Positions 53,155 through 58,369 are shown, counted from the stretch's first letter. The stretch: DNA of 64,000 bases from Chloroflexota bacterium (GCA_042408445.1 JBHORC010000016.1:13012-77011); one strand, 5' to 3'. The notes: generated from the letters alone by a model not told the origin. Program-made: numbers and translations.

Positions 53155-54785
53155 CGCGGCCGCCGGTCCAGGGCGGCCGCCCGTCCCGCACGGGCCCACC
53201 CTGATGGTCCGCCGCGCGGGGCCGCCGGTGCGCCGGCCGGTGGCCGGGTAGCGGGCGCGCCGGCCGTGGCGGCCCCGGCCGCAGCGGCGACCCAGCGGGC
53301 GACCTCGAGGGCCTCGGCCCGTCCCTCGACGAGGGCACTTGCCCAGTGCTCGTCCACCCAGTCGATCGACGGCGGGCCGGCGCGGAAGAGGTCGCTCCGG
53401 ACGAGGAAGCGGTGGAAGGGCAGCGTCGTCTGGATCCCGGCCACTTCGGCCTCGTCCAGCGCACGCTCGAGCCGGTCCAGCGCCCGGCCCCGGTCGGCGT
53501 CGACGACCAGGAGCTTGGCGATCAGCGGGTCATAGTCGGGCGGGACCCGGTCTCCGGACCGAATCGCCGTGTCGACGCGGACGCCGGGACCGCCGGGCAT
53601 GTGCCACCGTGTCACCGTCCCGGGCGTCGGGGCGAAGGCGCGGGCCGGGTCCTCCGCCGAGAGCCGGACCTCGATCGCGTGACGCGGCGGGTCGGCGGCA
53701 GCGGCCGCGGCGGCGACCACTCCTTCGGACAGCGGCCGCCCGGCCGCGAGGAACAGCTGCTCACGGACGATGTCGATGTCGGCCACCAGCTCAGTCACGC
53801 CGTGCTCGACCTGGAGTCGGGTGTTGACCTCGAGGAACCAGAACCGGCGGTCGGGGTCGAACAGGAACTCCGCGGTCGCCGCGTTCTCCAACCCGGCGGC
53901 GCGCGCGGCGCGGACGGCCATCCCGTGCAGGTCGCCGCGCTCCTCGGCCGTGAGTCCGGGCGCCGGCGCCTCCTCCACGAGCTTCTGATGCCGCCGCTGG
54001 ACCGAGCAGTCGCGCTCGCCTACGGCGACGATCGTCCCGCCGCGGTCGCCCAGCAGCTGGACCTCGATGTGGCGTGCCGGCCGGATCTCCCGCTCCAGGT
54101 AGACGGTCCCGTCGCCGAACGCGGACCGGGCCTCGGCGGCCGCGGCGGTCAGCGACGCCGGCAGATCCGACTCACCCGGGACGCGACGCATCCCCCGCCC
54201 TCCCCCGCCGGCCGCGGCCTTGACGAGGAGCGGATAGCCGACGCGTCGAGCCACGGTCGCGATGGCGTCGAGCGCGTCGGGCCGGTCGATCTCCGCCGCC
54301 TCGAGGGTGCCCGGGACGACCGGCACACCGGCCGCGGCCGCCGACCGGCGCGCCGCGAGCTTGTCGCCGAGGGCCGCGATGGAGGCGCTCGACGGGCCGA
54401 CGAACACAAGACCGGCCCCCTCCACGGCCGCGGCGAACGCGGCCCGTTCGGACAGGAAGCCGTAGCCGGGATGGACCGCCTCGGCGCCCGTCGCGACGGC
54501 GGCCTCGATGATCGCCTCGCCTCGGAGATAGCTCTCGGCCGCGGGCGGCGGGCCAAGGCGAACGGCCTGGTCCGCCGCCCGGACGTGAGCCGCGTTCGCA
54601 TCTGCGTCGCTGTAGACGGCGACGGTCTCGATGCCCAGCTCACGGCACGCCCGGATGATGCGGAGGGCGATCTCCCCCCGGTTCGCGATGAGGACCCTGC
54701 CGAAGGGACGGTCCGGGCGTGGTCCGTCTTTGCGCAAAGACGCCCGGCGGTCGGCGTCCCTCCCCGAGTGCGCGGCATCCGTCAA
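53151..54785 (-). CDS. Biotin carboxylase subunit of acyl-CoA (propionyl-CoA) carboxylase
   Basis: ATP-grasp biotin carboxylase ([41 protein letters not shown]). The TTG start overlaps the pccB stop. The N-terminus contains palindrome 1 (residues ASLRKDG). Confidence 0.9.
54725..54742. promoter_or_regulatory. Palindrome 1: CGTCTTTGCGCAAAGACG (18-bp perfect inverted repeat)
   Basis: Seen directly in sequence. It encodes SLRKD in frame near the 5' end of the biotin carboxylase gene. Exact coordinates come from the ORF frame. Confidence 0.6.
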
Positions 54786-56383
54786 AGGGGAATGTTCCCG
54801 TGCTTCTTCGGCGGGTTCGTGTCCCGCTTCGTCGCGAGCACATCCAGTGCCGCGATGAGTCGCGGCCGCGTCTCGGACGGGAGGATGACGTCGTCGAGGT
54901 AGCCGCGCGCCGCGGCGATGTAGGGATGGGCGAACCGTGCGCGGTACTCGTCGACGAGGCGGCGCTGTTCGGCTGCCGCATCAGCGGCCCCATCGATCTG
55001 GTCGCGGTAGATGACGTTCACCGCGCCGTCGGCGCCCATGACGGCAATCTCTGCGGTCGGCCACCCGACGTTGAGGTCGCCGCGAAGATGCTTGCTGCTC
55101 ATGACGTCGTATGCGCCGCCGTAAGCCTTGCGGGTGATGACGGTCAGCTTTGGAACCGTCGCCTCTGCGTAGGCGAACAGCAGCTTCGCGCCGTGCCGGA
55201 TGATTCCGCCGTGCTCCTGGTCGACACCGGGAAGGAAGCCGGGAACGTCGACGAAGGTCACGAGCGGAACGTTGAAGCAGTCGCAGGTCCGGACGAAGCG
55301 CGCCGCTTTCGTCGACGCCGCGATGTCGAGCGCCCCGGCGAGGACGGAGGGTTGCTGCGCGACGATCCCGACACTCCGGCCGGCGAGTCGACCGAACCCG
55401 ACGAGGATGTTCTGCGCCCAGTCCGGCTGGATCTCGAGGAAGGTTCCGTCGTCGACGACGCGCCGAATGACCTCGTGCATGTCGTAGGCGAGACTCGGGT
55501 CGTCCGGGACGATGTCGTTCAGGTCGGCGTCGCGACGATCCGCCGGATCCGTCCACTCGGTCCGCGGAGGGTCGTCGACGTTGTTCTGCGGGAGGTAGGC
55601 CAGGATTTCGCGAACCGTCTCGAGCGCCGCAGCCTCGTCCGGCGTCGCGATGTGGGCGACGCCGCTGACGGACGTGTGCGTTGCCGCTCCGCCGAGACGC
55701 TCCGCGTCGACGTCCTCGTGGGTGACCGCGCGGACGACGTTCGGGCCGGTGACGAACATGTAGCTCGTCCCCTCCACCATCACGGTGAAGTCGGTGATCG
55801 CCGGCGAGTAGACCGCTCCCCCGGCGCACGGCCCCATGACGACGGAGAGCTGCGGAACGACGCCCGACGCCAGCGTGTTGCGGAGGAAGATGTCGGCGTA
55901 TCCACCGAGCGACACGACGCCTTCCTGGATCCGCGCCCCACCCGAGTCGTTCAATCCGATGATCGGCGCTCCGACCTTCATCGCCAGATCCATCAGCTTG
56001 CAGACCTTGGCGGCATACGCCTCGGACAGTGAGCCACCGAAGACGGTGAAGTCCTGACTGAAGACGAACACGACTCGCCCATCGATCGTTCCATGGCCGG
56101 TCACCACACCGTCGCCGAGAATCGCGTCGGGGTCGCTGTCCGCGCCCCGCGCCGTGACGAATGCATCGATCTCGACGAACGACCCCGGGTCGAGCAGGAG
56201 ATCGATTCGTTCGCGGGCGGTCAGCTTGCCGCGGGCATGCTGCTGGTCGACGCGCGCCTCGCCGCCTCCCTCGAGCGACCGAGCGCGCATCGACGCGAGA
56301 CGCGCGGCGCCGCCGTCGTTGTTCACGGAGTCGTCGTCATGGGCCCACTCCCGTTCGCTGTCTTTGCGCAAGGACAGATGCAC
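54782..56383 (-). CDS. Propionyl-CoA / acyl-CoA carboxylase carboxyltransferase (beta) subunit
   Basis: [27 protein letters not shown] and two carboxyltransferase domains. GTG start. Codons 3-8 (LSLRKDS) are encoded by palindrome 2. Confidence 0.9.
56358..56377. promoter_or_regulatory. Palindrome 2: CTGTCTTTGCGCAAGGACAG (20 bp, 1 mismatch)
   Basis: It overlaps the first codons of the carboxyltransferase gene (SLRKD again), ~90 nt from the DnaA-box pair. Confidence 0.6.
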
Positions 56384-56462
56384 AGGTCAACGTCCGACCG
56401 ATGATAGAGGTGGGCGATCGCGCGAATGCACCGCGAATCGGGGGCCGCTCGGCCTCTGTCAC

Positions 56463-56504
56463 ATATCCACAAAATGGTGAACAACTCGCCGGATCTGTGG
56501 ATAA
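56463..56504. promoter_or_regulatory. Pair of convergent DnaA boxes (ATATCCACA ... TGTGGATAA) in an AT-rich stretch of the pccB-parA intergenic region
   Basis: Box 1 is at 56463-56471 (8/9 to TTATCCACA). Box 2 is at 56496-56504 (perfect complement of TTATCCACA). The intervening aaaatggtgaacaac is unusually AT-rich for this genome. Confidence 0.5.
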
Positions 56505-56586
56505 CGTCGTCGCCCGCCCACCTGGTCGGAGGAGTAGCATCACGGCCAGTCCCCGTCCGACGCGTCGACCCGTCCGACGCCGATTC

Positions 56587-57378
56587 ATGCTTCGAGGTGA
56601 TGCCCCGGTGACGCAGGTGATCGCGATTGCGAACCAGAAGGGCGGAGTCGGCAAGACGACGACAGCCATCAATCTCGCGGGCGCCCTCGAGGAGGAGGGC
56701 TATCGCATTCTCTGCATCGACATGGACCCGCAGGCGAATCTGACGGCGGGCCTGGGAATCAACCTGAACACGGTCGACAAGTCGATGGCTGACGTCCTCG
56801 CGGACGGACGCGCGACCCTCGCCGACGTTGTTCGACCGACGGACAGCGCGGGGATCGACATCGCGCCTGCGAACATCGACCTCGCAAGCACCGAGGGTGA
56901 GCTGTTCACCGCCCTCGGCCGCGAGCAGGTCCTGCGCGATGCGCTCGAGGGCCAGGTCGGCGTCTACGACTTCGTCCTGATCGACTGCCCGCCAAACCTC
57001 GGCCTCCTGACCGTCAACGGCCTGGTCGCTGCGAACAGCGTGATCATCCCCGTCCAGACCCAGTACTACGCGATGAAGGGCCTGAACAACCTGGTCAAGG
57101 TCATCAACATGATCCGGATGAAGTTGAACCGCGACCTTCGGATCCTCGGCCTGCTGCCAACCTTCTTCGACAGCCGAACGAACCTCGCGCGGGACATGCT
57201 GGACGAGCTGCGCGTCGTCGGCGATCACCACGTGTTCAGCAGCATCATCCGGAACACGGTGAAGCTCGGCGAGGCCCCCCTCGCCGGACGGCCGATCACG
57301 TCCTACGCCGGCGCCTCAGAAGCGGCGCGGACCTATCGCGAGCTTGCCCGTGAGGTGATCGACCTTGGCCAGGCCTGA
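56587..57378 (+). CDS. parA: Chromosome partitioning ATPase ParA/Soj
   Basis: Deviant Walker A (IAIANQKGGVGKTTTAINLA), ParA-type motifs (DMDPQANLT, LIDCPPNLGLLT). The start is ATG 56587 (MLRGDAPVTQVIAI). Confidence 0.9.
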   Translation: MLRGDAPVTQVIAIANQKGGVGKTTTAINLAGALEEEGYRILCIDMDPQANLTAGLGINLNTVDKSMADVLADGRATLADVVRPTDSAGIDIAPANIDLASTEGELFTALGREQVLRDALEGQVGVYDFVLIDCPPNLGLLTVNGLVAANSVIIPVQTQYYAMKGLNNLVKVINMIRMKLNRDLRILGLLPTFFDSRTNLARDMLDELRVVGDHHVFSSIIRNTVKLGEAPLAGRPITSYAGASEAARTYRELAREVIDLGQA

Positions 57379-58369
57379 TTTCCGCGCCGTCGCAGCACGA
57401 CGCCTCGCCGAGGATCGCGAACTCTCACCCGCGATCGTCAGCCTGCTCAGCTCGGACAAGGTGGGCCGGGCGACTGGCATCAAGATCCTGCCGATCGACC
57501 GGATCGAGTCGAACCCGCAGCAGCCCCGGATGGTGTTCGACGAGGACGCCCTCCACGAGCTCGCCGGCTCCATCAAGGAGCACGGTGTCCTCCAGCCCAT
57601 CCTCGTCCGACCGCTCGGCGAGAACCGATACCAGCTGATCGCCGGTGAGCGTCGCTGGCGCGCGACGCGTGAAGCCGGCCTCACGACGATCCCGGCGCTC
57701 GTCGAGGAGATGGACGACGACACCGCCCTGGAGATCTCGATCATCGAGAACCTCCAGCGCGAGGACCTCTCGCCGCTCGAAGAAGCCTCGATGTACGACC
57801 GAATGATCCACGAGCACGGGTACAGCATCCGGAAGCTCGCGGAGAAGCTCGGCAAGGACAAGGGCTATCTGGAGAACCGCCTTCGCCTCGCCGATGCGCC
57901 GGAGGAGATCCGGCAGCTCGTGTCCTTGCGCAAAGACACGCTCTCGCACGCCTACGAACTGCTGAAGGTCGACGACCCGAAGAAGCGGCGGAAGCTGGCG
58001 GCCCAGGTCGCCGCCGGCGAGCTGTCGCTGGTGAAGCTCCGCGAGCGGATCGAGGGTCGCCGACCCCATCTCGTCGACGACGCGGTCACGGAGCTCCCGG
58101 CTCCGACCACCCTCGACCGTGACGAGGACGCCGCGGCCGGCTGGGAGGCGCCCGCCGAGGCGTCCGGCCCGCTGGGGGACGATTCCCTCGTGCAGGCGCG
58201 ACATCAGCTCAACGAGGCGGTCGAGGATCTGGTTTCCGTCTTGCGGTCGCCGGACGTCGTCCGGTCGATCCCCGACGTGGATCGGGCGAACCTCGCGAAG
58301 TACCTGACGATCGCCAAGCTGAAGCTCGAGAACGCGATCGCCGTCGTCCGGACGGGCGACCCCGGCTGA
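57365..58369 (+). CDS. parB: Chromosome partitioning protein ParB/Spo0J
   Basis: ParB box (QPRMVFDEDALHELAGSIKEHGVLQPILVRP), HTH (SIRKLAEKLGKDKGYLENRLRL), C-terminal dimerisation region. The TTG start overlaps the parA end (GTG at VGRATG is an alternative). It contains palindrome 3. Confidence 0.85.
   Translation: MARPDFRAVAARRLAEDRELSPAIVSLLSSDKVGRATGIKILPIDRIESNPQQPRMVFDEDALHELAGSIKEHGVLQPILVRPLGENRYQLIAGERRWRATREAGLTTIPALVEEMDDDTALEISIIENLQREDLSPLEEASMYDRMIHEHGYSIRKLAEKLGKDKGYLENRLRLADAPEEIRQLVSLRKDTLSHAYELLKVDDPKKRRKLAAQVAAGELSLVKLRERIEGRRPHLVDDAVTELPAPTTLDRDEDAAAGWEAPAEASGPLGDDSLVQARHQLNEAVEDLVSVLRSPDVVRSIPDVDRANLAKYLTIAKLKLENAIAVVRTGDPG
57920..57939. promoter_or_regulatory. Palindrome 3: GTGTCCTTGCGCAAAGACAC (20 bp, 1 mismatch) inside parB
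   Basis: It encodes VSLRKDT at ParB residues 186-192, in the same reading frame and peptide as copies 1 and 2. Confidence 0.6.

Follow-up and report, generated by a model that had tools for sequence, protein, structure and literature searches.

What does a pair of DnaA-box sequences do in front of parA and parB, in a stretch of chromosome in which no dnaA was found? The window, i.e., the whole 64-kb stretch of chromosomal DNA that was analysed, comes from a Limnocylindria bacterium (Chloroflexota) and carries the dcw cluster (mraZ to ftsA, plus ftsZ), TCA-cycle genes, the glycine-cleavage system, methylmalonyl-CoA mutase and an acyl-CoA carboxylase operon. The box pair sits between this operon (carboxyltransferase, biotin carboxylase), which lies on the minus strand, and parA-parB on the plus strand, and the DNA on either side codes for metabolic and miscellaneous proteins. 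An earlier note on this DNA had offered three readings of the pair: DnaA-dependent regulation of parAB, a DnaA-box cluster serving origin-proximal organisation, or part of a replication origin that does not adjoin dnaA. Our analysis favours the first of them. On balance, the two 9-mers appear to be DnaA boxes and to make up an operator upstream of the parAB promoter, and it is nearly certain that the element is functional at all. The features needed for the argument are as follows (coordinates counted from the first letter of the window).

54725–54742, no strand: palindrome copy 1, CGTCTTTGCGCAAAGACG (family search)
54782–56326, minus strand: acyl-CoA carboxylase carboxyltransferase, divergent (Pfam Carboxyl_trans; start by alignment to relatives)
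56359–56376, no strand: palindrome copy 2, 18 nt, TGTCTTTGCGCAAGGACA, parS-like, in the 5' leader of the carboxyltransferase (family search)
56401–56406, minus strand: inferred −10 of the divergent carboxylase-operon promoter, TATCAT (conserved block beside the palindrome)
56463–56471, plus strand: candidate DnaA box 1, ATATCCACA, 8/9 (consensus match); the distal and weaker one, its centre at about −80 relative to the inferred start of parA transcription
56476–56487, plus strand: 12-mer between the boxes, GGTGAACAACTC (nearly invariant in 77 relatives)
56496–56504, minus strand: candidate DnaA box 2, TTATCCACA (TGTGGATAA on the plus strand), 9/9 (consensus match); the strong, proximal box, centred at about −47
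56535–56540, plus strand: inferred −10 of the parAB promoter, TAGCAT (TAnnnT conservation)
56594–56601, plus strand: Shine-Dalgarno sequence of parA, GAGGTGAT (kept in all relatives; the GTG start follows 6 nt further)
56608–57378, plus strand: parA, 256 aa, GTG start (Pfam AAA_31, CbiA and ParA from residue 2 on)
57365–58369, plus strand: parB, overlapping the end of parA (Pfam ParB_N and HTH_ParB; synteny kept in all loci)
57921–57938, no strand: palindrome copy 3, TGTCCTTGCGCAAAGACA, within parB (at about +1313 in 79 of 81 sources)

A box pair between two divergent operons

Read on the plus strand, the element runs CTGTCAC ATATCCACA AAAT GGTGAACAACTC GCCGGATC TGTGGATAA CGTCG, and its two boxes face each other across a gap of 24 bp. 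For what follows, the DnaA-box consensus of the lineage is assumed to be TTATCCACA. Box 2 matches it perfectly, while box 1 matches it at eight of nine positions and deviates from the relaxed consensus TT(A/T)TNCACA at position 1 only. When at most one mismatch is allowed, TTATCCACA has two matches in the whole 64 kb, both of them here; as about 1.06 would be expected per window, two matches inside 42 bp are far beyond chance. No third box was found in 56300–56620, even at up to two mismatches, and a search for the actinobacterial variant TTGTCCACA returned no extra site nearby.

The description given in the earlier note stands in most respects. The pair is convergent, with one 8/9 and one perfect match, it does lie in the divergent region between the carboxylase operon and parA-parB, and the palindromes that the note placed around it are present, copy 2 lying 87 bp upstream of box 1 and copy 3 in parB, to which copy 1 can be added. 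Its "AT-rich island" needs qualification: at a scale of 40 nt the GC content at the boxes (45%) is indeed the lowest of the window, but this value is tied by a stretch of parA (57089–57128), and the whole of 55–58 kb is GC-poor, so the island is not unique. Over 100–200 nt, the spacer has a GC content of 58–59%, which is among the lowest in the window (mean 71.5%). More broadly, the region 55000–58000, i.e., parAB and the 3' part of the carboxylase operon, has about 65% GC against 70–75% across the rest of the window, and the synteny shared by the whole clade (see below) makes a recent horizontal acquisition of this GC-poor region unlikely.

The palindromes belong to a family with the consensus TGTCTTTGCGCAAAGACA, of which 252 matches were found over all 81 sources. 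They occupy three to four conserved places round parAB, at about −3300, −1850, −250 and +1313 from the parA start in the 80 relatives (L001–L080). Canonical parS (TGTTTCACGTGAAACA) is absent from the same 81 sources at up to two to three mismatches, and the family is probably a lineage-specific, non-canonical parS.

Conservation across Limnocylindria

The genome relatives comprise 80 species-level genomes, all metagenome-assembled, with ParA identities of 84–95%. Nearly all of them are labelled Chloroflexota (Limnocylindria or Limnocylindrales), and three bear other phylum labels. The protein search for ParA homologues yielded only relatives of at least 87% identity, and deeper ones were reached by scanning metagenomes for the DNA pattern made of the 12-mer, N8 and box 2, which returned 120 loci (110 unique). 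Common to all 80 genomes is a gene order that runs from sucC to MCM, biotin carboxylase and carboxyltransferase, and continues with the divergent parA, parB, a UbiA-like gene and a HAD/acyltransferase gene. Some 5–10 kb further 3', the relatives encode LemA, a histidine phosphatase, a metallo-beta-lactamase-fold protein, an arginase-family protein and a MerR regulator, and none of the hallmarks of an origin.

The alignments with relatives also bear on two gene starts. The mechanical ORF of the carboxyltransferase reaches a GTG at 56383 and takes in the palindrome; in the relatives, the protein starts with MPTN..., the palindrome falls in the 5' leader, and a conserved −10-like TATGAT or TATCAT lies just upstream. 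By this comparison, the true start in the window is probably the GTG at 56326, near which the window differs from the relatives by an insertion of about 12–15 nt. As for ParA, many database models of this clade are 278–298 aa long, versus 256 aa here, as gene callers placed the start in the non-coding leader, ahead of the true GTG; the frequent models of 278–279 aa correspond to the ATG that the −10 block "TAGCATG" contains. The extra N-terminal residues are probably artefacts.

Of the 78 species-level relatives that are informative, i.e., whose loci include enough upstream sequence, about 75 have both boxes, located between −150 and −100 relative to parA. The pair is also present in the 110 unique metagenome loci, and the module persists down to a ParA identity of 62%. 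Over 1.35 Mb (the window and the loci), 158 of the 163 matches to the consensus with at most one mismatch fall no more than 500 nt upstream of parA, the remaining five being scattered and never perfect. Likewise, 117 of the 120 metagenome hits to the 12-mer–N8–box 2 composite have parA 60–200 nt further 3'; two of the three others sit on contigs that are cut off and the third (L127) looks chimeric. Counted from position 2 of box 1, the spacing of the boxes amounts to 33 nt (72 loci) or 32 nt (five loci), with box starts 33–34 bp apart. Information computed per alignment column indicates that the spacer is mostly unconserved, save for the palindrome, a block near 56400, the succession of box 1, 12-mer and box 2, positions 56532–56542 and the ribosome-binding site.

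The way in which the boxes vary is informative as well. Among 77 relatives, positions 2 and 4–8 are unchanging in both boxes. Box 2 holds to the consensus at all nine positions, T1 and A9 outside its symmetric core among them: 74 of 78 relatives have TTATCCACA without a mismatch, and TTGTCCACA, TTTTCCACA and ATATCCACA are rare variants. In box 1, position 1 varies between A, C and T, position 9 between A, C and G, and position 3 is mostly A; in the metagenome loci, its variants include the perfect TTATCCACA and forms of the TTGTCCACA type. At position 3, the boxes now and then have G, T or C, so that TTGTCCACA, ATGTCCACA and TTTTCCACA arise, and the G and T variants at this position are recognised forms of the DnaA box. 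About one third of the relatives have C or G at position 9 of box 1, a change that DnaA does not tolerate and that should weaken its binding. The substitutions fall at places that DnaA tolerates or at which its affinity would be tuned, i.e., position 3, position 1 and, in the weak box only, position 9.

Between the boxes, the 12-mer GGTGAACAACTC is conserved at least as well as the boxes themselves and is not palindromic. Its register is also kept: it lies 5 nt (rarely 4) past box 1 and 8 nt ahead of box 2. The sequence GTGAACAAC occurs 68 times at this site and elsewhere in the 1.35 Mb only within the parA coding sequence. Two identities were considered for the 12-mer and set aside. As a low-affinity DnaA site it would match at six of nine positions and be off register for the 11-bp spacing of arrays, which makes this assignment unlikely, and as a LexA or Cheo box (GAAC-N4-GTTC) it has no conserved partner half-site.

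A few loci depart from the common plan. In one relative, L055 (JACQEF010000102.1), box 1 and the 12-mer are missing and little is left of box 2, whose ...ATAACC tail appears to follow directly on the palindrome; either the locus underwent a natural deletion, or the assembly is at fault here. In L127 (Ga0209751_10101657, 88–116), the DNA right after box 2 is of lower GC content and carries an ORF of 794 aa on the opposite strand, and this locus is probably a chimeric assembly. Finally, 11 of 77 relatives (L010, L016, L018–L021, L023, L025, L026, L061 and L068) possess a third DnaA-box-like site (TCAACCACA, TCAGCCACA or TTAACCACA, matching at seven to eight of nine positions) at the expected −35 of parA, +18 to +28 from the box 2 start; it is absent from the window.

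Geometry of the putative parAB promoter

Downstream of box 2, a hexamer of the form TAnnnT recurs at +35 to +41 from the box 2 start (mostly +38/+39) in 108 of the 110 unique metagenome loci, as TAGCAT, TAGGAT, TACCAT, TACGAT or TAGATT. T1, A2 and T6 are always kept, A5 is found in 85 of the 108, and positions 3–4 are free, as is characteristic of a −10 element. From this hexamer to the start codon, the distance drifts between 65 and 78 nt and not in multiples of three, hence the stretch between them is non-coding. In the window, transcription of parA would then start near 56547, if we infer the start from the position of the hexamer. A generic sigma-70 scan returned no promoter and no −35 match, and there is no conserved −35. 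The inferred leader of parA (56548–56590 in the window and its equivalents in the relatives) contains a semi-conserved C-rich motif, e.g., ATTCCCCCGCC or CGTCCCGCC.

On the other side of the boxes, a conserved block CATCATA(G/C) or CATGATAG accompanies the palindrome in nearly all relatives, and the −10 assigned to the divergent carboxylase-operon promoter is the reverse complement of CATCATAG or CATGATAG. This −10 lies about 10–150 nt from box 1, and the palindrome anywhere between 35 and 181 nt from that box. As the module is at a fixed distance from the −10 of parA while drifting with respect to both the carboxylase −10 and the palindrome, it is tied to the parA promoter.

Several other explanations of the conserved sequence were tried. 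A promoter lying over box 2 itself, with TGAACA as −35 and GATAAC as −10, is unlikely, given that this −10 would be without the essential final T and that the generic scan was empty. A −10 of the sigma-28 type (GCCGATAA vs. GTGGATAA) would leave box 1 unexplained. A small ORF, or an N-terminal extension of ParA from the ATG of "TAGCATG", does not fit either: the distance to the real start is a multiple of three in only about a third of the loci, and the window has no such ATG. As for a hairpin or structured RNA, the arms display no compensatory changes, from which it follows that the pair is not a hairpin; moreover, the element is located upstream of the inferred −10, and Rfam offered no credible match.

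With respect to the putative transcription start, box 2 would cover about −51 to −43; further upstream, the 12-mer GGTGAACAACTC would fall at about −71 to −60, with box 1 beyond it at about −84 to −76. Box starts 33–34 bp apart correspond to about three helical turns, which would put both boxes on roughly the same face of the helix. DnaA might occupy the strong box constitutively and fill the weaker one as its level, or that of its ATP-bound form, rises; once bound, it would modulate RNA polymerase at a promoter without a conserved −35, possibly joined by a protein bound at the 12-mer. The supply of ParA and ParB would then follow the initiation potential of the cell, and the same binding would also set DnaA beside the parS-like palindromes of the lineage. 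Regarding the direction of the regulation, activation is the more likely, since the boxes lie upstream of the core promoter and not over it.

Competing readings and known systems

Of the three readings of the earlier note, it is the regulation of parAB by DnaA that the data favour, through conservation at the level of the class, a pattern of substitutions proper to DnaA boxes, a fixed distance to the parA −10 and drift on the other side, whereas the box cluster and the replication origin find no such backing. At the level of sequence, the pair has what is expected of DnaA boxes and of a DnaA-regulated promoter, i.e., a fixed place relative to the inferred −10. The identity of the bound protein can nevertheless be disputed. 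Another transcription factor or complex could read TATCCAC-N12-GGTGAACAACTC-N8-GTGGATA as its operator, the likeness to DnaA boxes being coincidental: the invariant 12-mer stands in a fixed register between inverted arms, and inverted TATCCAC cores would fit a multimeric regulator. Such a factor would not, however, explain why 74 of 78 genomes retain the full 9-mer TTATCCACA at the proximal site, i.e., also positions 1 and 9, which are not part of the symmetric core, or why the distal site does not mirror it. Among the variants that are tolerated, TTGTCCACA and TTTTCCACA are themselves known forms of the DnaA box; half-sites that are 33 bp apart from centre to centre are unusual for a dimeric regulator, and outside this site the 9-mer is all but missing from these genomes. 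We regard this alternative as unlikely. A 12-mer at least as conserved as the boxes means, all the same, that the regulator could be a protein recognising the whole composite. In a bolder version, box, 12-mer and box would constitute a dedicated two-protein switch, specific to Limnocylindria and with no described counterpart, in which DnaA and a GGTGAACAACTC-binding factor would couple initiation to the expression, and possibly the loading, of a ParABS system with a non-canonical parS, far from dnaA; this proposal is speculative and, in our opinion, improbable.

Alternatively, DnaA might bind here for a purpose other than transcription, parked by the parS-like sites so as to license or time segregation by ParABS, or held in a small sink, a role that may coexist with control of the promoter. 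Three palindromes flank parAB, with box 1 only 87 bp from the nearest in the window, and there is a precedent in Caulobacter crescentus, where the parS locus lies about 8 kb from Cori. As far as the account of Mera 2014 given in PMC6399470 goes, DnaA binds boxes of the Caulobacter parS region, and is required for the movement of the centromere. The two cases would be alike in having boxes near centromere-like sites and outside the origin proper, and in coupling the initiator to ParABS. Yet the Caulobacter effect concerns centromere movement rather than transcription, and the geometry seen here is locked to the −10 of parA and not to the palindromes, whose distance drifts over 35–181 nt; besides, the amount of DnaA that two boxes could titrate would be negligible, and the palindromes are only putative parS sites. 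This non-transcriptional reading has a small probability in our estimation.

Box clusters outside the origin are known from E. coli (datA, DARS1/2) and from B. subtilis (DnaA-box clusters, DBC), and the location of our pair is similar in this respect. However, these loci hold three to five or more close boxes, along with IHF or Fis sites in E. coli, while the present element has two and is tied to a promoter. The core of DARS consists of three or more close boxes, and datA and DBC of five or more; here, there are two in the window and a third, weak one in 11 of 77 relatives only, which is not the composition of a titration or recycling locus. Nor was any box cluster found in the window and the ±10-kb flanks of the 80 genome relatives (about 1.3 Mb), which yielded five stray imperfect matches. 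The pair does not amount to a cluster comparable to datA or to the DBC of B. subtilis.

That the spacer might be the chromosomal origin, or one half of a bipartite origin, minimal and unlinked to dnaA, we hold to be highly improbable, even though it starts from real observations: a consensus box pair occupies the most AT-rich 40 nt of the neighbourhood, between divergent genes and beside parAB and parS-like sites, which usually lie near origins, and the slope of the raw cumulative GC skew changes near 55 kb. Likewise, oriC is built on the same 9-mer consensus and is often found near parAB and parS. Yet an oriC has arrays of boxes, an unwinding element (DUE), DnaA-trios and usually dnaA or dnaN as a neighbour, none of which was seen in the loci searched. 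There are only two boxes, with no further match in 56300–56620 at up to two mismatches; no AT-rich unwinding element accompanies them, the 45% GC minimum being the boxes' own 40 nt between GC-rich flanks; and inspection of at least 77 relatives revealed no DnaA-trio repeats (TAG/CTA-type) by either box. In many relatives, the spacer measures about 250 nt, all of it taken up by two promoters, two leaders and a palindrome, and next to box 1 the length of the DNA is hypervariable, between about 10 and 150 nt. The skew does not help the origin reading either: the change at 55 kb is a local maximum of the cumulative curve, whereas an origin is expected at a minimum. Moreover, the skew at four-fold sites, computed on the 64 kb only, tracks gene orientation (C > G on the coding strand either way), so that the change of slope is no evidence in either direction. 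A separate point against an origin is that, to the right of parB, the genes are back on the minus strand.

A tblastn search with E. coli and B. subtilis DnaA as queries detected no dnaA in the window and 200 loci (2.08 Mb in total). The span free of dnaA extends over −56/+7 kb in the window and about ±10 kb in the 80 genome-derived relatives. The further boxes and the DUE that the earlier note had proposed to look for did not turn up, the GC content remaining at 58–59% over 100–200 nt around the pair, and most of what the note had itself named as telling against an origin (no additional boxes here, no dnaA close by) is what the loci display.

If the pair is read as a DnaA operator of parAB, its closest match among known systems is the promoter p1 of gidAB-parAB in Pseudomonas aeruginosa: DnaA binds boxes 6–10 upstream of p1 in EMSA, and extra DnaA raises the activity of p1 only when the boxes are present, a finding that links initiation to the supply of segregation proteins (PMC13438810, 2026). 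In both bacteria, the boxes lie upstream of the parA-parB promoter and not over it. In contrast, P. aeruginosa has five boxes in the oriCII region, by dnaA/oriC, in front of a four-gene gidAB-parAB operon, whereas the Limnocylindria element consists of two boxes and a 12-mer and would serve a stand-alone parAB whose neighbours are metabolic genes; none of dnaA, gidA and gidB was met over −56/+7 kb of the window or over about ±10 kb of the relatives.

A further comparison is offered by the classical promoters that respond to DnaA, such as those of dnaA and nrdAB in E. coli and of sda and dnaA in B. subtilis, at which DnaA activates or represses depending on its position and nucleotide state (PMC13438810). 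With these, the present element shares the small number of boxes (one to few), their fixed promoter-proximal place and the pairing of a strong box with a weaker one, while it differs from them in the target gene, the lineage, the invariant 12-mer and the convergent orientation of boxes across a 24-bp gap.

Beyond the operator itself, the comparison of these loci provides a first view of the −10 consensus of the lineage (gTAnnATg) and shows many database ParA models to be wrongly extended at their N-terminus. It also provides, for a lineage of about 70% GC, a working DnaA-box consensus, TTATCCACA, which is almost absent elsewhere and can be used to find the real oriC once complete metagenome-assembled genomes are examined. 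If DnaA does bind here, a link only recently shown in Pseudomonas would extend to a distant phylum, and to a parAB locus without gidAB or a nearby dnaA. A whole class of abundant, uncultured Chloroflexota of soil and freshwater would then wire its replication initiator directly to its segregation genes.
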